Position numbers and translations under genes: made by a program
Assembly (NCBI GenBank): GCA_021772515.1
Contig: JAJFLU010000033.1
Coordinates: forward strand, 28,106-92,105
Length of the DNA stretch: 64,000 bases
Source of the DNA: Opitutales bacterium
Lineage (GTDB): Bacteria > Verrucomicrobiota > Verrucomicrobiia > Opitutales > UBA2987
Direction of reading: 5' to 3'
The notes under the pieces: generated by a model
What the model saw: the letters and a program-made list of their open reading frames with translations, nothing else
What the model was told of the DNA's origin: nothing
The model's database searches: none
Shown: one piece after another, positions 5,296 through 55,121 of the stretch
Layout: each line of letters begins with the position of its first letter
Numbering within the stretch: the stretch's first letter is position 1

Positions 5296-5532
5296 AATAA
5301 TTTTATTAACAAATATTGTAATTCAACTCACACATTTAGGTCTCCAGATAAAAGAAGAACCCCATGCTGTACAGACACTAAGAATCAATTGCATAACCTC
5401 AAGGCATTTAGTAGTTAATTAGCATCGTTTTTGTAATTAAATCTCAAGAAACGCATTATCCACTGCCATCTGCCCCACCCTTTTTGAACAATAATCCCCA
5501 CGAGTAAGATAACTTACACTAAATTAGAGGAA

Positions 5533-5672: not shown

Positions 5673-6506
5673 CTATTTTTTCTTTAGACGGGCCACGATG
5701 ACCTCACGGTTTTTTTTGTGAATGCCGTAGAGGAGGCCGGGGGTGGATTTGTCCCAGGCGATGCCCTGACCGGTTGAGTTGACAGGGATGGTTTCCACAA
5801 ACTCGAGGGAAGATCCGGCTTGAGGAATTTTGAGAACGTATATCTCTTCTTCATGGTGCCCAGTTACATAGAGAAGTCCGTTTTCGGCGATTATTCCACC
5901 TGAGCTGCTATATACTTCAAATTTTTCAACGATTGATTTGGGGAAAATCCAGCCTTCTTTGCGGTTCCACTCCTTATCAAATTTAACGAGATTGGTCCAT
6001 GAAGGATCGTGATTCGGTTCCGCCGCTCTATTGCCATAGTAGGCGAATACGACATACCAGTGGTCTTCGTAAAAATCGACCCATGTGGTGGAACCAGAAT
6101 AGATGCCGAAGCTATGTGATCCGATGTGCTTCATCGTTTTGGTATCCCATATTTCTATGGAACCGGTCATGGGCACCTCTGGGTAATTGGAGTGTGCACA
6201 GTATAATTTGTCTTCGATGACGATTCCGCTGTTCAGGTGGGTGAGAGGTTGGCCTTCGGGGCATTCCCATCCATTCACTCGCTCACCGGTTGATTTAACG
6301 TATTTTCCGATAGCGTGATTACTAATAGCGTAGAAAAATTCTTCATCTACCGCCACAGCTTGGCGTGCCTCTATGCAGGGGAATCGGCGCAATTCCTGGT
6401 ATTCATAGGAACTGTCAGCAGCGAGACTATGAATCAAGGCCAGAAAGATAAACGACCCCGAATATAGATACCGATTCAGAACATGAGATAAAACGTATGC
6501 ATTCAT
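5673..6506 (-). CDS. Secreted hypothetical protein (possibly beta-propeller-like)
   Basis: The internal ATG at 6506 gives MNAYVLSHVLNRYLYSGSFIFLALIHSLAADS, which is signal-peptide-like. I recognise no family. The gene looks AT-richer than its neighbours. Confidence 0.5.
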   Translation of the reverse strand: MNAYVLSHVLNRYLYSGSFIFLALIHSLAADSSYEYQELRRFPCIEARQAVAVDEEFFYAISNHAIGKYVKSTGERVNGWECPEGQPLTHLNSGIVIEDKLYCAHSNYPEVPMTGSIEIWDTKTMKHIGSHSFGIYSGSTTWVDFYEDHWYVVFAYYGNRAAEPNHDPSWTNLVKFDKEWNRKEGWIFPKSIVEKFEVYSSSGGIIAENGLLYVTGHHEEEIYVLKIPQAGSSLEFVETIPVNSTGQGIAWDKSTPGLLYGIHKKNREVIVARLKKK

Positions 6507-6751: not shown

Positions 6752-8215
6752 ATGAGTGAAAATCTTCCTGTATTCAGTTCAATGATAAATGGCGAATGGT
6801 GCGGGAATTCAGGCGAAACTGTTACCATTTACAACCCTGCAAATCACCAACAGAAAGTTGCTCATTGCCAGTATGCCGATGGCGAATTGGCTAAATACGC
6901 TGTGAATGCGGCAGAGACTTCTTTTGAAAAATGGTCCCGCCAACCAGTAAAGCACAGTATTTCGATTTTGCGGAAGGCGGTCGATATTCTGGAAGAAAAC
7001 GCTGAACTTGTAAGCCGAACAATAACCCTGGAAAACGGAAAAACATTAAGAGAATCACAGGCCGAGGTTGATGCCACAATAAGGGATGCGCGTTACCAAC
7101 TGAAAGCGGTGGCAGAAACAGATTGGCGCATCCCTGCAAATATCCACGACAGCGACTCGGCTCACTATGTGCAGCGCGAGTCGATGGGAGTTTTTCTCCT
7201 TATCACGCCCTGGAATTTCCCGCTTGCCACGATAGTTCGCAAACTCGTGCCCGCCCTCGGATTTGGAAATACAGTGGTGGTCAAACCGGCACAGCTTACT
7301 CCGGGTGCAGCGGGCCACTGGTTTGAGTTTCTACATCAGGCTGGATTGCCGGGAGGGGTTGCAAATTTGGTGCTAGGACGAGGTTCAATCGTTGGTAATA
7401 CCTTGATCAATCAACCAAAACTGAGTGGAATTTCCTTTACCGGATCGACGGAAATCGGCCTGGATATATGCCGTAAGGTTTCCGCGCGATCCGTGCGTTT
7501 GCAAATGGAGATGGGTGGTAAAAACGCCATCGTTGTGCTCGCCGATGCCGATCTCGATAAAGCGGTCGAGGCCACCGTTTTGGCCGCGTTTTCCTGCGCC
7601 GGACAATGGTGTACCAGCACGAGTCGAGCCATCGTAGAAGAGGCGGTTTACGAGTCGTTTCTCAATCGGCTCAAATCCCGGGTGGAATCCCTGAAAATCG
7701 GCGACGGTATGAATGAAAATACCAATATGGGTCCGGTAATTTCTAACGGTCAACGAAACATTTGTTGCGAAGCCATTAACAAGGCTCGTCAAGAAGGTGC
7801 GTTACTGCTAACGGGAGGTAAGGCGATTAGAGCAATTGACGGCAAAACGGGATTTTTCCTGGAGCCTACCATACTCCGAGATGTCCTGCCGAATATGTCT
7901 TTGGCAAATGAGGAAGTGTTCGGGCCCGTGCTTGCGGTGATTTCGGTAAAAAATCCCGAAGAAGCTCTCGAACTTGCTAACGCCACTGTTTACGGCCTGA
8001 CATTTTCCGTTTACACTCGCTCTGCGGAATGGGCGGACCGCTTCATCAACGAAATCCAAGCGGGTGTATGCCATGTTAATTTGCCGACGGCATACCGAGA
8101 GGCCGCCTTTCCAATCGGTGGATGGAAGGAATCGGGTCGGGGTGTTCCCGAATGCGGCGATGAGCAAAAACATTTTCATACTCGTTTAAAAACAGTTTAC
8201 CGAAGCCCGTTATGA
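6752..8215 (+). CDS. NAD(P)-dependent aldehyde dehydrogenase (semialdehyde dehydrogenase-like)
   Basis: ITPWNFP, the catalytic Glu context MEMGGKNA, the catalytic Cys context CAGQWCTSTSR, and EEVFGPVL are all present. Length is 487 aa. Confidence 0.9.
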   Translation: MSENLPVFSSMINGEWCGNSGETVTIYNPANHQQKVAHCQYADGELAKYAVNAAETSFEKWSRQPVKHSISILRKAVDILEENAELVSRTITLENGKTLRESQAEVDATIRDARYQLKAVAETDWRIPANIHDSDSAHYVQRESMGVFLLITPWNFPLATIVRKLVPALGFGNTVVVKPAQLTPGAAGHWFEFLHQAGLPGGVANLVLGRGSIVGNTLINQPKLSGISFTGSTEIGLDICRKVSARSVRLQMEMGGKNAIVVLADADLDKAVEATVLAAFSCAGQWCTSTSRAIVEEAVYESFLNRLKSRVESLKIGDGMNENTNMGPVISNGQRNICCEAINKARQEGALLLTGGKAIRAIDGKTGFFLEPTILRDVLPNMSLANEEVFGPVLAVISVKNPEEALELANATVYGLTFSVYTRSAEWADRFINEIQAGVCHVNLPTAYREAAFPIGGWKESGRGVPECGDEQKHFHTRLKTVYRSPL

Positions 8216-9372
8216 AAATTGTTTCCATAAAGCATAAATCGGTGCCCATTCAGTCCAAAATCCGCAACGCAGTGGTCGATTTTTCCGAGATGACGGCCGG
8301 AATTGTGGTTATTGAATCAGACGTTATTCGCAATGGAAAACCGCTCGTCGGTTATGGGTTCACTTCCAATGGACGGTACGCCCCTTGCGGAATAATGGCG
8401 GAGCGTATGATCCCGCGTTTGTTGAAAGCGTCCGAGAGCAGTCTTCTAAGCGAAGATGGACGGAACTTCGATCCTTTTAAAGCGTGGGAAGTAATGATGC
8501 GAAACGAAAAGCCGGGGGGGCACGGGGAACGTTCCGTGGCAGTGGGCGCAATCGACATGGCCTTGTGGGATCTGGTGGCGAAAATTGAAGATAAACCCCT
8601 TTACCAGATTTTGGCCGACAGATATAGAGGTGGAGAGGTCAATCGGAGAGTTTATGTCTACGCAGCAGGCGGTTATTATTATCCTGGGAAAGACCTTGAA
8701 ATGCTGAAAAAGGAAATTCAAGGTTTTCTAGACTCCGGGTATGAATCAGTGAAAATAAAAATCGGGGGAGCCTCGCTAGATGAGGACCGCAAACGGATTG
8801 AGGCGGTTGCAGAATTAACGGGTTTTCCCGGTCGAATCGCCGTGGACGCCAATGGCAAATTCACGGCCGAAGAAGCAATCAAGTGGGCTGAAGCGTTGGC
8901 CCCTTACAAATTGAAATGGTATGAAGAACCGGTCGATCCGCTCGATTACGCAGGTCTGGCAAATGTTGCGGAAATTTATGAAGGATCTCTGGCCACAGGG
9001 GAAAACCTGTTTTCCACGATCGATACACGAAATTTGATACGCCACGGTGGGCTTCGATCCGACCGAGATTATTTACAAATGGATCCCGCCCTCAGTTATG
9101 GTCTCGTGGAGTATATCCGCACCCTCGAAATGTTGAGTGATCACGGCTGGTCGCATGTTCGGTGCATCCCCCATGGAGGGCATCAATTTTCACTCCATAT
9201 CGCTGCTGGCCTGGGAATTGGCGGGAACGAATCCTATCCCGGAGTGTTTGGAGCCTTCGGCGGTTTCGGCGACAATATTCACCCACAAGCAGGGTATATC
9301 GAAATGCCCGATGCCCCCGGAATCGGCATAGAAATGAAGTCGGATTTGATGCAGATTTTCAAGAATCTTTGA
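8212..9372 (+). CDS. Enolase-superfamily dehydratase, D-tartrate dehydratase (TarD)-like
   Basis: Blocks GYGFTSNGRY, EKPGGHGERSVAVGAIDMALWD, VYAAGGYYYPGK, VKIKIGGA, AVDANGKF, WYEEPVDPLDY, ATGENLFS and CIPHGGHQFSLHIAAGLG closely resemble my recollection of Bradyrhizobium TarD. The ATGA start overlaps the ALDH stop. Confidence 0.75.
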   Translation: MKIVSIKHKSVPIQSKIRNAVVDFSEMTAGIVVIESDVIRNGKPLVGYGFTSNGRYAPCGIMAERMIPRLLKASESSLLSEDGRNFDPFKAWEVMMRNEKPGGHGERSVAVGAIDMALWDLVAKIEDKPLYQILADRYRGGEVNRRVYVYAAGGYYYPGKDLEMLKKEIQGFLDSGYESVKIKIGGASLDEDRKRIEAVAELTGFPGRIAVDANGKFTAEEAIKWAEALAPYKLKWYEEPVDPLDYAGLANVAEIYEGSLATGENLFSTIDTRNLIRHGGLRSDRDYLQMDPALSYGLVEYIRTLEMLSDHGWSHVRCIPHGGHQFSLHIAAGLGIGGNESYPGVFGAFGGFGDNIHPQAGYIEMPDAPGIGIEMKSDLMQIFKNL

Positions 9373-9412
9373 AAAAAACATGCGCATAGCAAAGCCTCCG
9401 AGAGGCGCCACC

Positions 9413-11203
9413 CTAATCTTGCGCTTTTACCGGCACATACTCATCGGCGCCAAGATCGATATTGGGAGAGAAACGTGGTTGCCCATCAATGTCGTCCGAG
9501 GCGAAATCGGCATATAAACCTCTGTTAATACATTTAGAATCAGGAGCTAGATGAAAGGTCGGTATAATTTCGGCCTTTTCTTCCTTATCAAGGTTAAAGT
9601 GCCCCCAAATCGTTATCTGACTGTCATCATTATCCACAATCAGGGACCAGGCTTCCCCCACCCTTATTACACGATCCCGGAGAGATCCGGGCTCAAAATT
9701 CCCTTCGATGGTGACAATAGTCTGGAAACGATTTTCCAGGGTTCGGAATGCCTTAGTTTCAAGGCTCAGTCCGTCATCTAGAAACCCAGGCTCAATATTG
9801 TAGGCAGCGTAGGAATTTCCAAAACCACCTTCGATCAAATTGTAAGACAGATCGACCCAGGGCTCCAACCTGATTTGCTTGGATTCATTGCCGTAAAAAA
9901 TGTTATTCCTCATAACCAGTGGCTGCAGAAAAGGGTTTTTAAAATTAAGATGATCCACTGCTCCACCATGTTTTCGAGCTTTGTTGAAAACCACCGTGTT
10001 GTTGACTGCATAGAGCCATCCGTGAGTACCGCCAAAAGCGCTCGATTTGTTGTCGGATGAATTATAAGCGAAAATATTATTCTCCAAGTGCATCAGCGAA
10101 TCATCCTGGTGAACAGCTCCACCGGATCCATCCGTATTGTTTCCGAAAAAAAGGTTATACTTGATTTTCGGATAGGAAAATTTTTGTGATTCGAGGCCGC
10201 CGCCATCGTCCTCTGCATAGTTATTGAGAAAAATATTCCACCTAACGGTAGGCCAGGAAAAATATTCGCAATAAATGGCTCCGCCGTCGCTTCCTCCGAG
10301 AGCTTTATTGGCAACAAAGAGGTTATGGAACACTCCTGCCCGAGAGCTGTTGGAAAGACTAATGGCTCCACCGTTGGATGAGCGGGTTAAATTTTTGTCA
10401 CCTATCCCAGCCCGATTGCCATAGAAAATATTATATCCAATTTGTGGAATGCAGTCGTCATTGGCGGATAATCCGGCCCCGTAACCGACCTCTGTCAAAT
10501 TTTCTATGATCAAGTTATGCTTAACGATGGGATTGGCAAAATCAACCAGACCTATCCCGCCCCCATCATGGCTGCGTTGGCGTCGTCGTTTAGGATCGTG
10601 GCTGAAACCTTCCGGGGCCAGAGTTTGGTTATTGCGAATAACGTTGTTGGTAATGACAGGCGAGGTCTTGTAGCAGTAAATGCCCGCCCCATGTCCCCGA
10701 ACTAATCCGCCGGTAATTATAAAGCCATCGATTTTTGCCGAATCGCCTCCCTCCACAACCCGGCCTTTCTGCCCACCATCCAGAATGGTGGCATTATCAA
10801 AAATATCCCGCTCCCATGTGGCCGGATCGAATCCACCGTAAAGGTCAACAAATGGAACCATTTTAAGAGGAGTTTGGAAATAAACGCCTTTGGCCACCAA
10901 AATGGCAATTCGGTGATTTTCGGATGCTTGCTCAAGCGCCCTCAACGCAGCCGGAATCGTTTGCCAGGGCCTGCTGCGATCTCCATTTCCGTTCCGGTCG
11001 TTTCCGGTCTCAACAGAAACATGAAGCACTTCCGCATAGCCTTCCAATGGGACAATTTCAGTCCGGGGACCCATATCTTGCAGCCGCCACCCGTGCGGGG
11101 CATCGGGCCAGGCATGGACATCTTCAGGCGGATCGGCTCTCAGAAACGAAATAGATATCAGGGAAAGAACAGAAAACGGGATGAAAAAATATTGCCTACA
11201 CAT
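9413..11203 (-). CDS. Secreted right-handed parallel beta-helix repeat protein
   Basis: The N-terminal signal peptide is MCRQYFFIPFSVLSLISISFLRA. Gly/Asn-rich repeats recur (NNxxxxN, GGGI, GGAI), as in pectate-lyase-fold proteins. The C-terminal DIDGQPR...DLGADEY is typical of such proteins. Confidence 0.65.
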   Translation of the reverse strand: MCRQYFFIPFSVLSLISISFLRADPPEDVHAWPDAPHGWRLQDMGPRTEIVPLEGYAEVLHVSVETGNDRNGNGDRSRPWQTIPAALRALEQASENHRIAILVAKGVYFQTPLKMVPFVDLYGGFDPATWERDIFDNATILDGGQKGRVVEGGDSAKIDGFIITGGLVRGHGAGIYCYKTSPVITNNVIRNNQTLAPEGFSHDPKRRRQRSHDGGGIGLVDFANPIVKHNLIIENLTEVGYGAGLSANDDCIPQIGYNIFYGNRAGIGDKNLTRSSNGGAISLSNSSRAGVFHNLFVANKALGGSDGGAIYCEYFSWPTVRWNIFLNNYAEDDGGGLESQKFSYPKIKYNLFFGNNTDGSGGAVHQDDSLMHLENNIFAYNSSDNKSSAFGGTHGWLYAVNNTVVFNKARKHGGAVDHLNFKNPFLQPLVMRNNIFYGNESKQIRLEPWVDLSYNLIEGGFGNSYAAYNIEPGFLDDGLSLETKAFRTLENRFQTIVTIEGNFEPGSLRDRVIRVGEAWSLIVDNDDSQITIWGHFNLDKEEKAEIIPTFHLAPDSKCINRGLYADFASDDIDGQPRFSPNIDLGADEYVPVKAQD

Positions 11204-11305
11204 GGGGACAAAATCTATTGGACTTACGACATCAGCTCAATTCCTTTCTCCAAATAATATGGCAGAAAAATCACTTATATTTTACGATCGTTTTTTTAAG
11301 GAAAG

Positions 11306-11826
11306 TTACCATCGGCACATTTGACGGTTCCACGCATGAATTGAAAAGAAGTTGATAATAATACAACCACCGTAGGCCAAGGGATCGACGGCCATACTCG
11401 AATCACCGTGGCCGACCACACGCCGACCGAGCAGGACATCTACATGTTTCGCCAGTCTTGGATAATACTTTGATAAGTGGTTGTTATTAAATGAATAATG
11501 GACAAAGAGGAAGACAAAGACGAAGAGGAAGATTATTAAAAAACGGCCTAAAGTTCGCGGCATTCGGATCGGCCCTTTTTCTTTCTGACTTAAAGCGGCC
11601 ACGAGGTTGCGGTACCATCTGAGTAAGGTGTCTGGTGTAACGATAGGTGAAATCCCGAAGAGAGCTCTTCGTCCGAGCTTTTTCGATTTCTAGGCAAGCT
11701 TTACCTTATTTTCTGGAAATTATTGAAGGCTTTGGGTTTTCCACCGAATTGCTCGATCAATATCTGCCCTTCCTCAGTCAGATACTCGATAACAGCCTGT
11801 TGCCGTCGATTCCTATAGTCCCCCGA
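11306..11826 (-). pseudogene. Decayed N-terminal remnant of an rve/integrase-core (IS481/IS3-like) transposase
   Basis: Minus-strand translation in shifting frames gives DYRNRRQQAVIEYLTEEGQILIEQFGGKPKAFNNFQKIR-stop. A frameshift then leads into KSKKLGRRALFGISPIVTPDTLLRWYRNLVAALSQKEKGPIRMPRTL, followed by a low-complexity insert. No DDE core follows. Confidence 0.6.
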
Positions 11827-12088
11827 TCAGATGAACCATAAAGTGAAATGGTAGAATCGTACCTCAGGCCAACACTGAGTCTGTCTTTCAGATATTCAAT
11901 GCGTTATTTGATTGGGCTGATTATTTTGGCCTAACAAGTTTTTTGTGCAACTTGCTGGGCGATTATTTTGCTACATTCTATAGGCTGGTTGTGCAAGAGA
12001 GCAGGCCTTGCTGCGCTGATAGAGTGGTTCTCATGGCCTTTACAGCTACGGTGGTCCATTCCGTCAATTAACTCACCTGGACCTGTTG

Positions 12089-12949
12089 TCAGTAAAGCAA
12101 TTCGATCCAGCGTTCACCGGCTACGAGCTCGGCCTTTCGCCGGTTCCATTTCTCGGCAGAACCCGCCAGCCTGGCAAACACTACATCCAACTCGTCGCGG
12201 ATGACTTCCAAGCCTGCCAGGTAAACGAAGGTTTTGGAATCTGAAAGCATTTTCCATAGCTCTTTGCCCCGCGATTCCAGGGCGCTCCCCCAATCGATCG
12301 CATCCGACCAATGGGGCCTGCTGCTTAAAGCCGAAATCGCTTCGAAGGTCTGCACGTCGTAATATTGGGCGAAATCATTTCTCTTGTCGTTCATGTAAAA
12401 GAGGTCCAGACCGGTTTTCCCCCCGTAGAAAAGCCGAACTTGGCCTTCGAATTGGGGAGTTTTCCCGTAAAGATGCTTAATAAAAGCCCGAAATGGCGCG
12501 ATTCCGGTGCCCGCTCCAATTAGTATCAGGGATGTGTCGGGTTCCTCCGGCGCCTCGAAGGCCTGACCGTAAGGACCGGTTAGGAACAGCGTGTCATCAA
12601 CGCTCAAATCGCAAAGATAGTTCGAGGCGACGCCCCGGTATTCCTCACCACTAAATTCGTCTATGTAGCTACAGCGGCGCACACAAATATGAACCAGTGT
12701 GTTGCCTTGGCTGGTTGTTTCCGCCAAGTCGGCGATGCTATAAAGCCTGAAGTGCCGATCCTGGCCGAACTCCTTTTGCCCCGGCGCCAGCACCCCGATG
12801 TTTTGTCCCAGCGCGACAGAAAAATCGCTATCGTCAAGCTGTAGGACAATATCCCGCACCTCTTCGGTTGATTCAGTCGGCGTAATGCGGTCCGTGGCAA
12901 CCACCCTGGCTTTGTACTGATGTTTTTTATCGTAATCCTGCAAACGCAT
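12089..12949 (-). CDS. Plant-type ferredoxin-NADP+ reductase (FNR)
   Basis: FRLYSIAD is the FAD-binding RLYSIA-type motif and LIGAGTGIAPFRAF is the NADP-binding motif. The protein ends in a terminal aromatic residue (ELLY). A strong AGGAGG lies 8 nt upstream of the ATG. Confidence 0.85.
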   Translation of the reverse strand: MRLQDYDKKHQYKARVVATDRITPTESTEEVRDIVLQLDDSDFSVALGQNIGVLAPGQKEFGQDRHFRLYSIADLAETTSQGNTLVHICVRRCSYIDEFSGEEYRGVASNYLCDLSVDDTLFLTGPYGQAFEAPEEPDTSLILIGAGTGIAPFRAFIKHLYGKTPQFEGQVRLFYGGKTGLDLFYMNDKRNDFAQYYDVQTFEAISALSSRPHWSDAIDWGSALESRGKELWKMLSDSKTFVYLAGLEVIRDELDVVFARLAGSAEKWNRRKAELVAGERWIELLY

Positions 12950-29070: not shown

Positions 29071-29979
29071 ATGGATTTGGCGGAATTTATTTTAAGGCAA
29101 TCCCCCATATTGATGGACGGAGCGATGGGCACAGAACTCGCAAATGCCGGACTTGAGATGGGCGGGCAAAACTGTATTTCCCATCCGAAAGAGGTCCTCG
29201 CTATTCATGAAAAATATTCCCGAATCGGGTGCGACCTCCTTTTAACCAACACCCTGACTATGAACAGGGTTTACATCGAAACCCATGGGTTGAATATCGA
29301 TGTTAAAAAAGTGAATTTGGCCGGGGCCAAACTCGCCAAATCCGCAGCGCGGCCAGGGCAATATGTGCTGGGGGACATCAGCTCGACGGGTCAAATGCTG
29401 GAGCCCTATGGAGAATTTACTGAAACGCAGTTCTGCGAAACCTTCAGGGAACAAGCCGAAACCCTGGCCGCTGGTGACGTGGACGGCTTTATTGTCGAGA
29501 CGATGTTCGACCTGCGCGAGACCCTGTGCGCCGTCCGCGCCTGCCGGGAAGCGGGTTCTTTGCCGGTCTTTGCTTCTCTCTCATTTCAAACTGCCGAACG
29601 CGAGGGCCGCACCATGATGGGCGACTGTGCTCGTGATATAGCGATTGCCTTGGCGAATGCCGAGGTTGCTGCGGTAGGGGCCAATTGCGGGGATATCGAT
29701 CCCCACGAGGCCGCCCGTATAGTGGAGATAATGAAGGATGCCGTCGATCTGCCCATTCTGGCGCAGCCGAATGCCGGACTTCCAAAGCTTATTAACGGCC
29801 AGACAATATTTGAAATGACACCAGATGAGTTTGCTAAGGGAATAGCGGCCTGTCTGCACGCCGGCGCCAGCCTGGTGGGAGGTTGCTGCGGCACAACACC
29901 GGAACATATCCAGTGTATCGCTAAACTTATTGAAAACTGGAAGTCCGGGCCGGCCAATGTGTCCGAACACGGGGATTAG
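29071..29979 (+). CDS. Stand-alone homocysteine S-methyltransferase-domain (Zn, thiol-methylating) protein
   Basis: ILMDGAMGTEL, GANCG and GGCCGTTPEHI form the three-Cys zinc site pattern of MetH N-domain/BHMT/MmuM-type enzymes. The stop TAG is formed at the MITE junction. Confidence 0.8.
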   Translation: MDLAEFILRQSPILMDGAMGTELANAGLEMGGQNCISHPKEVLAIHEKYSRIGCDLLLTNTLTMNRVYIETHGLNIDVKKVNLAGAKLAKSAARPGQYVLGDISSTGQMLEPYGEFTETQFCETFREQAETLAAGDVDGFIVETMFDLRETLCAVRACREAGSLPVFASLSFQTAEREGRTMMGDCARDIAIALANAEVAAVGANCGDIDPHEAARIVEIMKDAVDLPILAQPNAGLPKLINGQTIFEMTPDEFAKGIAACLHAGASLVGGCCGTTPEHIQCIAKLIENWKSGPANVSEHGD

Positions 29980-30251
29980 AACCTATCTCAAATTCGATGA
30001 TGATGATGCAGAGAGCAATTATGTGCTTGGAGCAAGGCGCGACGGGGCTTGCAGGGCTGGAAGCCCTGCTGACCCGTCGGAACGCTGCTCAAACTCATAA
30101 TTGCCTCTGTCCGAAGGATTTGTGCGGCACGGTAGCACCTGCGGCGTTGGTTTGCACCCGAAGGGCGTCAGCCCATCGGTATGCAAATCCGCCTGGCATC
30201 TGCCACCGTTGCGCTACAAACATCATTCATCCGCGAATTTGAGATAGGTTC
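29979..30251. mobile_element. 273-bp MITE-like element with 18-bp perfect terminal inverted repeats and flanking TA
   Basis: GAACCTATCTCAAATTCG (29979-29996) and CGAATTTGAGATAGGTTC (30234-30251) are perfect inverted repeats. TA sits on both sides (29977-78, 30252-53). The left about 70 nt recur at 53970-54047. No convincing ORF is present. Confidence 0.7.
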
Positions 30252-30254
30252 TAG

Positions 30255-31337
30255 TCAGTATCCGCAAACATCGAGCGCGGTTGAGAGGTGCAGTTCGAGT
30301 TTTTCTTCGGGCATATCCTCGACGTGCTCGATGGTGAATATTTTATTGCCACAATCGCTCAGAATGGACGAGTAACCGCCAATGAGTTCCTCTTTGCTCG
30401 CCCAGGCAAGATGCGCGGGAAGATTCACGAATGGCACCTTGTCTGGCCACAAACGCCGGGCCTCCCGTAATGAAACGTCGCCGATTGGAGGGATTGAAAC
30501 GGAATCGATTACCTGAAATGGCGAATCGGTTATTTCATCCTTCAAGTGTCCGAAAAGGCCGTCAAAATGAACGGCCAGGATTTTTCCGGTCCCCGAAAGG
30601 GCGGAGGAATAGATTTCGTAGATGGGCAAACAGTAATCCCGATAGTATCGCGGTGAAATGGTGTTGGTTATATTGTCGATGCAAAGGATATGTTCCGATG
30701 GACAACCAGCCGTGATTTCCGCTGCTTTCTCGTGGAATAGCCTTTGAGTCTCAAAATATTCCAGGCATTCAGCAATTTCATCGGCGATATCCAGCGCGAT
30801 TCGCTCGATCGATGCCAACTCGATCCATGCGCGTTGAAATGGAGTTTTGTCAACGACTCCGATCGTGTAGCCGGCGTCTCCCAGGGTATCGAGATCCCGC
30901 TCCATTTCAGTATAATTCGGGCGCAGGCGGTCGGTCATGGCGGCAAAGATGTAGTTGATCACCCGCCAGTCGGAAGGCTCTTTGACAAACGCACTTTCCA
31001 TCGATCCGGTAAGCAGTCCGATATCGGGGTTGTGACCGACCACCGAATGCACGGACCCGATGGGGGTTTCCAGAGTGTGGCGAGTTTTGCGGACACCCGC
31101 CTCGCGGTAATTGGTGCGCGAATAGGTGACAGTATCGACATCGGGATCGATGGCATGGTCGAAAAAGAACATTGGGCGGTAGGGCGGAACAATATGTGAG
31201 ATCGCCATGCCTCGCGCCGAAAGCCGCCGCACCCACCCGCCAGACGGACCCGAACGGACTCCATCTGCGGCTAAAACATTCGGCTTATCGGGTGTTTCGC
31301 CGTGCAGGACACAAAGGTGTCGCTCGCGAGGTGTCAT
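30255..31337 (-). CDS. Uroporphyrinogen-decarboxylase (URO-D) family protein, MtaA/CmuA-like methyltransferase candidate
   Basis: The N-terminus MTPRERHLCVLHGETPDKP resembles the MT2-type URO-D family start. The 360-aa protein carries VHFDG at the position where CoM methylases carry H-x-C-G, judged by an alignment by eye. Confidence 0.6.
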   Translation of the reverse strand: MTPRERHLCVLHGETPDKPNVLAADGVRSGPSGGWVRRLSARGMAISHIVPPYRPMFFFDHAIDPDVDTVTYSRTNYREAGVRKTRHTLETPIGSVHSVVGHNPDIGLLTGSMESAFVKEPSDWRVINYIFAAMTDRLRPNYTEMERDLDTLGDAGYTIGVVDKTPFQRAWIELASIERIALDIADEIAECLEYFETQRLFHEKAAEITAGCPSEHILCIDNITNTISPRYYRDYCLPIYEIYSSALSGTGKILAVHFDGLFGHLKDEITDSPFQVIDSVSIPPIGDVSLREARRLWPDKVPFVNLPAHLAWASKEELIGGYSSILSDCGNKIFTIEHVEDMPEEKLELHLSTALDVCGY

Positions 31338-52061: not shown

Positions 52062-52232
52062 ATGCCACTCTCTCGTGGGGGGCTTTTCGTGTGTCTGTGT
52101 TTTTTGGCGCCTTCGGCTGTTGTGGTGGAGGGTGATCATGGCGGCGGGGAGGCGCGTTTGCTCTTCTACATCACACTGGATGATGCGCGAATTGGGAGCA
52201 TGTTGTTTCAGGAAGGATCCAATGAGACTTGA
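52062..52232 (+). pseudogene. Orphan 5' remnant of a kelch-type gene (signal-peptide region only), running into darT
   Basis: MPLSRGGLFVCLCFLAPSAVVVEGDHGGGEARL duplicates the N-terminus of the 54018-55121 protein. It then diverges and stops after 56 codons. Confidence 0.45.
52079..52161 (+). repeat. Direct repeat copy A (83 nt) flanking the DarTG cassette
   Basis: By my hand alignment, 52079-52153 are identical to 54041-54115 (75 nt), and 6 of the next 8 nt also match. Confidence 0.85.
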
Positions 52233-52821
52233 GGAATTTCAAAATATTACTCCACTTGACAATATTCCATCGATTCTGAATCACGCAATCCTGTCGCATA
52301 ACAAAGCGGCAAAGCTGCCTCATAATACGGTGGCTCATCAAGAGGTTCAGCAGAGGCGGGATGCCAAGATGGTCCCTAGAGGCCTTCCCCTGCATCAGTA
52401 TGCGAATGTCTATTTCCACGCTCGTAATCCCATGATGTACTCCAGGAAAAACCAGGCTCAGAAACTTTGTGTTCTCAGGATTTCAACACGAATACTTGAA
52501 ATTCCCGGAGCGGTGATTACCGATCAGAATGCGGCCAGCCCATACGTTCGCTTTTCGAGTCCGGACAGGCTTCCGGAGATGGATTTGGAATACGTCTTCG
52601 CCCGATACTGGAAACATAAGGATGACCCTATCGAGGATAGGAAGCATAGCAACGCAAAGTGTGCCGAGACACTGATTCCTAATAGGATTTCACCGCGTTT
52701 TTTACAGGGAGCCCATGCGCTTAACGAGACAGCCAAACAAAAATTGATTGCTCTCGGTTTTAGTCTTCCGCTAGTGTGCAATCCTGATCTATTGTGCAAT
52801 CCTGATCTATTTTTCCACTAA
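52222..52821 (+). CDS. darT: DarT, DNA ADP-ribosyltransferase toxin (DUF4433)
   Basis: GGAAGGA lies 5 nt upstream of the ATG. Motifs include ITPLDNIPSILNHAILSH, YANVYFHARNPMMY, AVITDQNAAS, and the ARTT glutamate context NAKCAETLIP (compare QAEFLV in the Thermus DarT). A macrodomain gene follows directly. Confidence 0.85.
   Translation: MRLEEFQNITPLDNIPSILNHAILSHNKAAKLPHNTVAHQEVQQRRDAKMVPRGLPLHQYANVYFHARNPMMYSRKNQAQKLCVLRISTRILEIPGAVITDQNAASPYVRFSSPDRLPEMDLEYVFARYWKHKDDPIEDRKHSNAKCAETLIPNRISPRFLQGAHALNETAKQKLIALGFSLPLVCNPDLLCNPDLFFH
52776..52811 (+). repeat. Perfect 2 x 18-bp tandem duplication at the darT 3' end
   Basis: GTGCAATCCTGATCTATT occurs at 52776-52793 and again at 52794-52811. It is in frame and gives CNPDLL-CNPDLF just before the stop. 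Confidence 0.9.
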
Positions 52822-52838
52822 TTGCTTGAAGCTTACAC

Positions 52839-53954
52839 ATGATTAAGGCCCAGATCGGAGATATGTTTGCGAGCGATATGCAGACCATCGTGAATACGGT
52901 GAACTGTGTCGGTATCATGGGTAAAGGAATCGCCCAGATTTTCAAAAAAAGTTATCCTGACATGTTCACCGACTATGCCAACCGCTGTAAACGCGGCGAG
53001 GTGAAGCTTGGCGAGCCATACCACTACACCGATTTGGCCGGCGCCTCGATCATCAATTTTCCGACCAAAGGACACTGGCGGGCATCGACCCGCTTGGCAG
53101 ATGTGGAGGCAGGACTGGACTATTTTGTTAAGCATTTTCGGTCCTGGGGGGTAACATCAGTGGCTTTCCCCCCGCTGGGTTGTGGTAATGGGGGTCTCGA
53201 ATGGTCAACCGTGGGGCCACTGATGTATGCAAAACTGAAAGGCATTGGAATACCGGTGGAACTCTACGCTCCGTATGGCACGCCTCCCATTCAATTAAAG
53301 CCCAACTTCCTCGGGGCAGATCAACAAACTGAGTTTTTGGTTAAGGGACAACGCCGGGAGAAATTGCGGCCCGAATGGGTAGCATTGGTCGAAGTGCTGT
53401 ACGAGTTGGAAAAGCAGCCCTACGCAAATCAAGTTGGCCGAACCATTTTTCAGAAAATATGTTATATAATCACCAAACTGGGAGTGGACACTGGCTTCCA
53501 ATTTGAGCGCAACAGTTACGGTCCCTTTGCCGGAGAGGTCAAAGAAGCGATCAACGTTTTGGCCAATAATAATTGGGTGACCGAGAAACAGATGGGACGG
53601 ATGACCGCGCTGAAAGTAGGTCCTCGCTACGCGCGGGATCGGTTAAAATTTTCCAAGCAATTGAAGCCCTTGAAACAAAAGATTGAGAAAACCGTGGATC
53701 TGTTCAGTCGAATCAAGAGCACGGAGCAGGCCGAAGAAGTCGCCACAGTTATCTTTGCCGTGCAGAGTTTGAAAAAAGAGCACGATCCGGATCGGGTTTC
53801 CGAAGAGGATCTTTTTGGCTATATTCTCGGTTGGAAGAAGGGTTGGAAGAGCGATGAAGCCAAACAAAGCAGCTTGGCGGAGACTATTCGAAATCTTGAG
53901 ATGCTGGGGTGGGTGAAGCTCCGGTTCAGTGAATCGCTTCCGGTTCCGGTGTGA
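52839..53954 (+). CDS. darG: DarG, macrodomain antitoxin / DNA ADP-ribosyl glycohydrolase
   Basis: IVNTVNCVGIMGKGIAQIFKKSYPDMFTDYANRCKRGEVKLG...INFPTKGHWRASTRLADVEAGL...VAFPPLGCGNGGLEW is near-collinear with my recollection of the Thermus DarG macrodomain. A C-terminal domain of about 200 aa follows. Confidence 0.9.
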   Translation: MIKAQIGDMFASDMQTIVNTVNCVGIMGKGIAQIFKKSYPDMFTDYANRCKRGEVKLGEPYHYTDLAGASIINFPTKGHWRASTRLADVEAGLDYFVKHFRSWGVTSVAFPPLGCGNGGLEWSTVGPLMYAKLKGIGIPVELYAPYGTPPIQLKPNFLGADQQTEFLVKGQRREKLRPEWVALVEVLYELEKQPYANQVGRTIFQKICYIITKLGVDTGFQFERNSYGPFAGEVKEAINVLANNNWVTEKQMGRMTALKVGPRYARDRLKFSKQLKPLKQKIEKTVDLFSRIKSTEQAEEVATVIFAVQSLKKEHDPDRVSEEDLFGYILGWKKGWKSDEAKQSSLAETIRNLEMLGWVKLRFSESLPVPV

Positions 53955-53969
53955 CGTTGCGGATAACTC

Positions 53970-54047
53970 GAACCTATCTCAAATTCGATGATGATGATGA
54001 TGACGCACAGAGCAATTATGCGCTTGGAGCAAGGCGCGACGGGGCTT
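53970..54047. mobile_element. Left-end fragment of the same MITE family as 29979-30251
   Basis: It begins GAACCTATCTCAAATTCGATGATGATGATG and continues ...CAGAGCAATTATG(C/T)GCTTGGAGCAAGGCGCGACGGGGCTT, as in the full copy. Homology ends inside the shared GGGGCTT at 54041-54047. Confidence 0.65.
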
Positions 54048-55121
54048 TTCGTGTGTCTGTGTTTTTTGGCGCCTTCGGCTGTTGTGGTGGAGGGTGATCA
54101 TGGCGGCGGGGAGGCTCGGTTGCCGGAAAAGATTGCGAACAATGCGGTTGCTTGGGTGGAGATTGAGGGGCAGCCGGTTATTTTTAGTTTTCTTGGTCTG
54201 GAGGAGGGAAAAACTTATGAGGATACCAGTTTGGCCGCGTTTGAATATCGGCTGGTGGAAAAAACTGGCCGAAGACTGACACCCGTTCCGGGTGGTGAGG
54301 GGCGGTTGGCGGGGGTTGCCGCGACGGTTGGGCAGAAGATTTATATTTTCGGCGGTTATACTGTGGATGCCGAGGGGGGTGAAGTTTCCTCGCCATTGGT
54401 GCATTCTTTCGATCCCCAATCGCATGTTTATCGGGAACGCAAGCCGATGCCTACGCCGGTTGATGATTCGGTTGCCCTGGTTTACAAGGATCGTTATGTT
54501 TACCTTGTCAGTGGCTGGCATGACAAAGGAAACGTCTCGCTTGTGCAGGTTTATGATACGGAAAAGGATGTTTGGTTTGGGGCCACGGATTATCCGGGGT
54601 CGCCGGTATTTGGGCATTCCGGGGGGATCGTGGGGGATCGGTTGATTATTGCAGATGGTGTGCGAGAAAAGCGTTTAGAAAGCGGTAAGCGGACCTTCGA
54701 GATCACCGATGAGGTTTACCAGGGTATCATCGATTCCGCGGACCCAAGTGTTATCAAATGGGGGAAATTGCCTCCGCATCCGGGGAAACCTAGGTATCGG
54801 ATGGCGGCGGTCGGTTCCGGGCAGAAAGGCGGGTTGGTCGTATTCGCGGGGGGCACGGGTAATCCCTACAATTACAATGGTATTGGTTATGACGGTGTGC
54901 CGAGCGAGCCTTCCGATCGGGTTTTTGGCTACCAAATGGATCGCGGAGAGTGGTTGGTGTATGCTCCCAAGGAGACGGCCACGATGGATCATCGGGGTTT
55001 GCTGGAGATTGATGGCGTTTTTTATACGGTGGGGGGAATGGTCGCCGGGCAGGAGGTTAGCGATGGGATTTTTTCTTTTCGTCTGCGGGAGCGGGGGGAA
55101 ATTGGGCATTTGGAAAATTAG
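54018..55121 (+). CDS. Secreted kelch-repeat beta-propeller protein (NanM/galactose-oxidase-like fold)
   Basis: The signal-like N-terminus is MRLEQGATGLFVCLCFLAPSAVVV. Kelch-like blades repeat (GQKIYIFGGY, DRYVYLVSGW, GDRLIIADG, GLVVFAGG, GVFYTVGGM). The ORF is also open from the (ATG)5 run at 53988. Confidence 0.8.
   Translation: MRLEQGATGLFVCLCFLAPSAVVVEGDHGGGEARLPEKIANNAVAWVEIEGQPVIFSFLGLEEGKTYEDTSLAAFEYRLVEKTGRRLTPVPGGEGRLAGVAATVGQKIYIFGGYTVDAEGGEVSSPLVHSFDPQSHVYRERKPMPTPVDDSVALVYKDRYVYLVSGWHDKGNVSLVQVYDTEKDVWFGATDYPGSPVFGHSGGIVGDRLIIADGVREKRLESGKRTFEITDEVYQGIIDSADPSVIKWGKLPPHPGKPRYRMAAVGSGQKGGLVVFAGGTGNPYNYNGIGYDGVPSEPSDRVFGYQMDRGEWLVYAPKETATMDHRGLLEIDGVFYTVGGMVAGQEVSDGIFSFRLRERGEIGHLEN
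54041..54123 (+). repeat. Direct repeat copy B (83 nt), which forms the 5' coding region of the kelch gene
   Basis: See copy A. This copy encodes GLFVCLCFLAPSAVVVEGDHGGGEARL. Confidence 0.85.

Follow-up and report, generated by a model that had tools for sequence, protein, structure and literature searches.

A DarTG2-class cassette inserted in the signal-peptide region of a kelch-repeat gene of an Opitutales bacterium, probably by illegitimate recombination that duplicated the 5' end of the gene

DarTG2 systems are toxin-antitoxin and abortive-infection modules in which DarT2 ADP-ribosylates thymidine in single-stranded DNA and the macrodomain of DarG reverses this modification. Defence and toxin-antitoxin modules occur at scattered chromosomal sites without mobility genes, and the route by which they arrived is rarely visible. 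A macrodomain antitoxin, as opposed to a NADAR antitoxin, defines DarTG2, which modifies thymidine in single-stranded DNA, and K80 is the catalytic residue of DarG (PMC11543638). In the RRDM island of enteropathogenic Escherichia coli (EPEC), DarTG2 is embedded between hsdS and hsdR (PMC12255303). Here we describe a 64-kb stretch of contig JAJFLU010000033.1 (hereafter the window) from an Opitutales bacterium, in which a predicted darT-darG cassette of 1.8 kb lies between two copies of the 5' end of a kelch-repeat gene, next to a fragment of a miniature inverted-repeat transposable element (MITE). The best explanation, which we hold to be moderately probable, is that the cassette, a short donor flank and the MITE piece were joined into the kelch gene by illegitimate recombination.

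All features of the locus lie on the forward strand, and coordinates are those of the window. A truncated copy of the kelch 5' end (52062-52232) starts at the native ATG at 52062 (MPLSRGG...), runs through direct repeat R1 (52079-52161) into a 60-nt cassette leader (52162-52221), and reaches a stop at 52230-52232 after 56 codons, overlapping the start of darT and ending 8 nt past its ATG; this open reading frame (ORF) matches no Pfam family. The cassette continues with darT (52222-52821, 199 aa) and darG (52839-53954, 371 aa), which are followed by a 15-nt spacer (53955-53969) and a 78-nt left-end fragment of the MITE (53970-54047). The second direct repeat, R2 (54041-54123), opens with GGGGCTT (54041-54047), a microhomology common to the MITE and the kelch sequence at the right junction. 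The present kelch-repeat beta-propeller ORF (53988-55121) begins at ATG 53988 (377 aa) or ATG 54018 (367 aa), with its N-terminal 18 or 8 residues encoded by the MITE.

A repeat finder and BLAST of the region against the window both identified R1 and R2 as one direct-repeat pair of 83 nt at 98% identity. The leading 75 nt are identical (75/75) and 6 of the next 8 match (GCGCGTTTGC in R1 and GCTCGGTTGC in R2), with a probability of 0.004 for at least six of eight matches by chance. Both mismatches fall at third codon positions and are synonymous, and each copy encodes GLFVCLCFLAPSAVVVEGDHGGGEARL. The earlier note on this DNA, made from the letters and their translations, had described the repeats, their coding content, the upstream ATG with its early stop and the intact downstream kelch ORF in the same way, and the repeat finder, BLAST and ORF translations uphold that description. 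The same is true of the 15-nt spacer, the 78-nt fragment related to the MITE at 29979 (an 88% BLAST match), the GGGGCTT overlap, and the (ATG)5 run (53988-54002) and ATG 54018 inside MITE-derived sequence, which are in frame with each other and with the kelch ORF. The leader, given there as 58 nt, measures 60 nt. The cassette had also seemed AT-richer than its flanks, whereas its GC content (0.488) is within the normal range. It ranks at the 24th percentile among windows of 1.8 kb, which average 0.516 (sd 0.033), and is equal to that of the upstream flank (0.491); a foreign composition of the cassette was rejected, as its GC content is not an outlier. The repeat might have been a common dispersed element, but BLAST found no further copy in the window, and it was absent from all loci that we retrieved except contigs of the same organism.

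The two genes are co-oriented, with darT preceding darG by 17 nt. DarT scores 127.4 bits against Pfam PF14487 (cut-off 22.5) and 128.7 bits in PADLOC, and phmmer matches it to PDB entries 7omu and 7omv. Its motif K146-C-A-E149-x-L-I-P153 is invariant across four DarTs and aligns with the counterpart in 7omu, the AE(T)LIP glutamate motif, whose glutamate we take, from work on Thermus DarT, to be catalytic. DarG matches the Pfam family Macro, scores 276.3 bits against the NCBIfam antitoxin_DarG (above the cut-off of 250) and 308 bits in PADLOC over residues 1-355, and matches PDB entries 5m3i and 5m31; its FPTKGHW lysine motif aligns to the DarG proteins of Mycobacterium tuberculosis and Thermus. 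The matches in Pfam, PADLOC, NCBIfam and PDB thus assign the cassette, as a prediction, to the DarTG2 class of toxin-antitoxin/anti-phage modules. It resembles the systems of Thermus, M. tuberculosis and EPEC in the darT-darG order, the DarT domain, the two-domain DarG with an N-terminal macrodomain and the retained catalytic-motif residues, and its DarG lies above the NCBI equivalog cut-off. Unlike these systems, it is known here from sequence alone, and its DarT, with NF048013 (toxin_DarT) as the sole NCBIfam family match, scores 109.8 bits, below the equivalog cut-off of 150; it is a divergent DarT. It also differs from them by a 6-aa tandem duplication and by substitutions at positions that its relatives share. 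The duplication (18 nt, within 52771-52806, found by the repeat finder as family D3 and by alignment) adds LLCNPD after LVCNPD near the C-terminus and is not present in three relatives, and one stretch that reads AENWKHPDNQ in the relatives reads ARYWKHKDDP in the window. The window DarT could be an attenuated toxin.

A sister species gives the best view of the locus before the insertion. At 71% identity, the kelch homologue nearest to that of the window is encoded by L083, a Logan contig assembled from a sibling run. L083 shares synteny with the window, at a DNA identity of 70-79%. Its genes are, in order, QueG, GIY-YIG, an enolase-family gene, a small ORF whose C-terminus (...HMRESHPHMGGLGMSL) is the same as in the window, the kelch gene and threonine synthase. 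The small ORF and the kelch gene are 74 nt apart there, and the locus contains no DarTG, no repeats and no duplicated 5' end. Because a syntenic locus lacks both DarTG and the duplication, the comparison of the two sequences shows that DarTG at the kelch gene is an insertion and that the duplication belongs to that event. The core of what had been proposed, arrival by recombination that duplicated the 5' end of the gene, is therefore borne out, with L083 as the empty site; the term recombination stands and may be given the narrower sense of illegitimate joining through microhomology, as opposed to transposition or site-specific integration. It is very improbable that the arrangement is ancestral and that the sister species lost DarTG through recombination between the repeats. 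Such a loss would be scarless, so that the empty site by itself gives no direction, but the repeats are identical at 75/75 positions against about 25% flanking divergence between the species, the sister gene has an unrelated sequence in its signal-peptide region, the nearest DarTG (from the same sample as L083) is at another locus, between guaA and folD, and DarTG-free relatives exist at guaA-folD too. Among GTDB genomes, the best kelch match (69%) is in an Opitutales metagenome-assembled genome, L005. There, the homologous kelch gene (10760-12330) is split by an insertion sequence (IS) encoding a DDE transposase in two ORFs; with this split gene and a different synteny, L005 was rejected as a conspecific empty site.

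Both novel junctions exist in the reads of run SRR15505512. An independent k=31 assembly of that run yielded Logan contig L081, whose 1947 bp correspond to 52124-54070 and span from the last 30 nt of the identical part of R1 to 30 nt into R2, while contig L082 starts at 54086; this is the k=31 graph expected for a single-copy insert between two 75-nt repeats. An assembly artefact, either a chimeric join or a repeat-cassette circle wrongly threaded into an uninterrupted kelch gene, is scarcely credible. It is true that the source is a metagenome-type contig and that a 75-nt repeat makes the graph ambiguous, with the Logan assembly breaking there. However, the independent read assembly holds both novel junctions, a 1.96-kb circle that has no replication gene and carries 75 nt of kelch sequence could arise only by excision from an integrated form, and an in-frame fusion with microhomology is not typical of assembler chimeras. 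No second copy of the cassette was found in the window or in the k=31 assembly of SRR15505512.

The right junction retains the sequences of both partners. The MITE, ending ...GCGCGACGGGGCTT before GCAGGG in its full copy, and the gene, ending ...CGTGGGGGGCTT before TTCGTG, overlap in GGGGCTT. A microhomology of at least 7 nt has a probability of about 4^-7 at a random junction, and we regard the overlap as the hallmark of illegitimate joining at a microhomology. On the left, 6 of the 8 bases at the junction match the gene, and a score for microhomology there depends on the donor sequence. The MITE is truncated on its inner side and has its outer end toward darG, the orientation expected if it had inserted normally. 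This orientation would also suit a history of several steps, in which DarTG was inserted with a larger kelch 5' duplication, a complete MITE then entered a site just after darG, and a deletion at GGGGCTT, from MITE position 78 to the second copy of the gene, took away what lay between. The MITE family has been active at different sites in two sister species, and the right junction with its 7-nt microhomology is of the deletion type. Nevertheless, we consider this history rather unlikely, as it requires three events where one is sufficient, the bases beside the MITE end are TC (in contrast to TA at 90% of 104 flanks of the related IS family), and the 75/75 identity of R1 and R2 leaves little time for multiple events.

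We therefore return to joining in one event. In our proposal, the cassette (60-nt leader, darT and darG) would have been copied or spliced into kelch codons 7-33 along with the initial 78 nt of an IS5-family MITE that lay next to it and 11-15 nt of flanking donor sequence. The donor locus would have had the order leader-darT-darG-spacer-MITE, and the transferred segment would have ended 78 nt into the MITE, which would have fused to the gene on the right via the 7-nt GGGGCTT. The right junction would lie 75-83 nt upstream of the left junction in the gene, and because of this offset, the same gene stretch is present on both sides of the insert. Two routes can be envisaged. A template switch of the type in microhomology-mediated break-induced replication (MMBIR) or fork stalling and template switching (FoSTeS) models would leave the kelch gene near codon 33, copy the donor and return 75-83 nt upstream; alternatively, incoming DNA might undergo double illegitimate recombination. 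Either route would explain both insert and duplication in one event. Homology-facilitated and double illegitimate recombination in natural transformation were reportedly described by de Vries and Wackernagel in 2002 and by Hulter and Wackernagel in 2008. Both references are listed in PMC8116780. The donor plausibly came from this lineage, since a mobile IS5-type MITE family is also found in the sister species. It would carry GTGACGTTGCGGATAACTCGAACCTATCTC (the end of darG, the spacer and a full MITE), and an uninterrupted conspecific kelch gene would read MPLSRGGLFVCLC....

The locus is like known illegitimate recombination at microhomologies in that foreign DNA was joined without a recombinase or inverted repeats, with a 7-nt microhomology and a duplication of recipient sequence. 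It is unlike the models of that process in being a natural case, reconstructed from sequence, whose insert ends coincide with those of a related cassette at another site (L084), which is not predicted. That coincidence is one of several points that weigh against our proposal, since shared ends are not expected of random breakpoints. In addition, neither the window nor the k=31 assembly yielded the donor locus, and the closest relative, L084, has no MITE; the two synonymous mismatches in the repeat tail hint that R1 and R2 may derive from different alleles; the sole empty site is from a species about 25% divergent in DNA and does not give the exact pre-insertion sequence; and no sigma-70-like promoter was found in the MITE fragment, between darG and kelch, or near either repeat copy, by a scan that may not suit this phylum.

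The shared ends were seen through the relatives of the cassette. DarG relatives at 70-86% identity occur in several phyla, and the closest cassette, on contig L084 from the same sample as L083, encodes a DarG of 86% identity and lies between guaA and folD. It is 82% identical to the window cassette, and the DNA homology covers 52161-53958, from the last base of R1 to 4 nt past the darG stop, including the leader and the first 4 nt of the spacer. The left flank of L084 aligns with DarTG-free relatives right up to the cassette boundary, and L084 is itself an insertion, because DarTG is missing from guaA-folD in two relatives whose GuaA is 87% identical. The cassette thus has the same ends at the kelch gene (52161 and 53958) and at guaA-folD (5941 and 7722 of L084), CTCYTCYACATCAYACTGGA on the left and TGACSTT on the right, within about 2-4 nt. 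These shared ends may mean that the cassette is a discrete mobilisable unit.

One unlikely explanation builds on this and takes leader-darT-darG as a discrete non-autonomous mobile cassette with fixed ends, which a recombinase or transposase encoded elsewhere would have moved, with the duplication and the MITE piece as side products. It would account for identical ends at two unrelated sites and for the L084 flank that aligns to DarTG-free relatives up to the boundary, and an 11/13 inverted match is present at the cassette ends (52168-52180 and 53945-53957). However, this weak match is short, was noticed post hoc and overlaps coding sequence, there are only two loci, which are homologous to each other, and neither site has a regular short target duplication. 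The 83-nt repeats lack the other hallmarks of a transposon or integrative element as well: no transposase or integrase ORF was found inside the cassette in the ORF list or with Pfam, and the window has no tRNA or tmRNA gene. Together with an Rfam scan of the whole window, which gave no RNA family, the latter result excludes an integration site in an RNA gene. To our knowledge, a duplication of 75-83 nt is far outside the target duplications of transposases and fits no known transposase. Nor do further copies support a dedicated mobile element, as the loci we retrieved held none and searches of phage and plasmid collections returned one 71-nt plasmid match, no phage match and, in viral contigs, no protein above 57% identity; long flanking repeats were absent at the other DarTG loci L084, L085 and L086. 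A decidedly unlikely variant is that the cassette is a discrete mobile unit without a recombinase that moves by copy-choice or template switching, conceivably provoked by DarT ADP-ribosylation of single-stranded DNA at stalled forks; it would leave long target duplications, by which the interrupted gene would remain usable, and be exactly reversible, with the toxin penalising reversal.

As for the earlier origin of the cassette, the leader appears to encode what remains of the C-terminus of an upstream ORF that has been lost (LFYITLDDARIG... in the window and LLHIILDGGRIVDIFFKN followed by a stop in L084). Its resemblance to the hsdS C-terminus is weak, with 5 identities in 12 residues, and is suggestive of a derivation from hsdS. 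On contig L207, a DarG relative of about 80% identity lies between hsdS and hsdR of a type I restriction-modification operon, as in the EPEC RRDM arrangement. Free-standing cassettes keep a 3' piece of hsdS (LLSGELxV...) upstream and a 5' piece of hsdR (MNLNESIVE...) downstream (5350-5415 and 7135-7180 of L085; 3400-3475 and 5198-5260 of L220). The sequences of these loci indicate that DarTG2 has repeatedly left its place between hsdS and hsdR in type I restriction-modification operons. Unlike the EPEC arrangement, the window cassette has no restriction-modification system and is on its own, within coding sequence and surrounded by housekeeping genes.

Several consequences would follow from the insertion. 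The native kelch promoter and start would now drive the 56-codon truncated peptide, and darTG would probably borrow the kelch promoter. The leader of L084 contains a promoter-like site (5957-5984, TGGACG-16-TATATT), of which the window counterpart (52177-52204) reads TGGATG ... CATGTT, with a degraded -10 element; because this site is degenerate in the window, darTG may depend on the kelch promoter. The promoter scan gave a single promoter-like match, inside darT, and fewer matches in the region than in shuffled sequence. The suggestion that the MITE might supply a promoter is thus not supported, as its fragment contains no promoter-like site, and read-through from upstream appears at least as likely. 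No terminator-like site was found between darG and kelch and, with no promoter-like site there either, co-transcription of the kelch gene with darTG is the simplest expectation. The body of the kelch gene would probably be transcribed after darG and translated from the MITE ATG at 53988 or 54018, so that the signal peptide would retain its hydrophobic core and cleavage region.

The kelch ORF itself is a Pfam kelch-repeat beta-propeller and is full length in comparison with its homologues. Among 116 homologues, 87% have a strongly hydrophobic segment in the first 45 residues, followed by a conserved LPxxxxNNAVA motif. Since these elements lie in the N-termini of the homologues, the repeat is predicted to cover the core and cleavage region of a signal peptide. 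The new N-terminus (MRLEQGAT- or MMMMMTHRAIMRLEQGAT-) places at least one arginine before the unchanged hydrophobic core, and export of the kelch protein from it could still be possible. These features are consistent with a replacement start supplied by the MITE. The 377-aa protein has no record as a called gene, look-ups of the exact protein gave Logan contigs of the same organism only, and a cluster look-up returned neither an accession nor a name. An identity as NanM (N-acetylneuraminate epimerase) was rejected, with a score of 24.5 bits against a cut-off of 416.

The label MITE, which the earlier note had applied to the element at 29979, is correct, as its terminal inverted repeats match those of a widespread IS5-family insertion sequence. 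The full copy (29979-30251, 273 bp) has inverted ends of about 35 nt at 89% identity and is flanked by TA on each side; the fragment at 53970-54047 matches its positions 29979-30050 at 88% over 78 nt (BLAST). The 18-nt core of the ends, GAACCTATCTCAAATTCG, was found in at least 120 stretches among the matches listed, in metagenomes of soil, wetland, gut and other sources (L087-L206). Most of these mark the termini of IS elements, about 830 bp long, that encode a 262-aa transposase with DUF4096 and DDE domains (DUF4096 and DDE_Tnp_1 in the ORF of L155). The consensus of the flanks is C-T-A next to GAACC, with TA at 90% of 104 independent flanks, which implies a CTAG-like target with TA duplication for the IS family. 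On these matches, the 273-bp element is best classed as a MITE of an IS5-type family. The copies seen are two in the window (one of full length, the other a fragment), a single end in L083 and, in metagenome contig L097, one full copy of 83% identity. The family is mobile in this lineage, because L083 carries the same MITE/IS end at a different place, where the contig ends. An ORF that runs through the MITE is unlikely to be coding, because its frame changes in the L097 homologue.

MITEs and IS ends can donate promoters or start codons to neighbouring genes. The kelch locus is like such cases in that a truncated IS5-family MITE end stands directly upstream and gives in-frame ATGs and the first 8-18 residues; it is unlike them in that the fusion came through truncation at a microhomology and not through transposition beside the gene, and in that no promoter-like site was detected in the fragment. 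Two other observations concern the MITE. Its left half forms a predicted hairpin of about 100 nt (alignment columns 31-133) in three copies from unrelated metagenomes (window 29979-30251, L097 1432-1705 and L126 about 940-1167), in which 21 of 99 predicted pairs vary on both sides yet stay paired; with three sequences only, this suggests a conserved RNA or DNA structure. In addition, TTGCGGATA in the spacer (53956-53964) is the reverse complement of 30259-30267, just beyond the right end of the full MITE. The chance of this recurrence, estimated post hoc, is about 2e-4. A target-site preference was rejected as the cause of its presence beside two MITE ends, as the motif is absent from the 104 other IS flanks.

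Farther from the insertion, the enolase-family and aldehyde dehydrogenase genes that lie between QueG and GIY-YIG in the sister species (1128-3749 of L083) are found about 40 kb away and inverted in the window (6752-9373), which is a rearrangement between the two genomes.

Overall, the genes belong to the DarTG2 family, their joining resembles known illegitimate-recombination and template-switch events, and the MITE is a derivative of a widespread IS, so that no new kind of system is needed. What gives the locus its value is that both junctions are preserved, along with the target duplication and, as the MITE end, some of the donor flank; with the empty site known from a sister species, the event can be reconstructed almost base by base. 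It illustrates that a defence cassette can enter coding sequence without the loss of the gene: with the 5' end duplicated, the cassette would take the native promoter, and the displaced gene would start anew from the transposon fragment. Exact excision is a further prediction, as recombination between the 75-nt repeats R1 and R2 would remove the cassette and leave the original gene just as it was, whereas a functional DarT/DarG pair would penalise segregants that lose the cassette, with DarT thus selecting against excision. Should the shared ends at two sites turn out to be general, they would suggest that such cassettes have a means of movement that has so far gone unrecognised.

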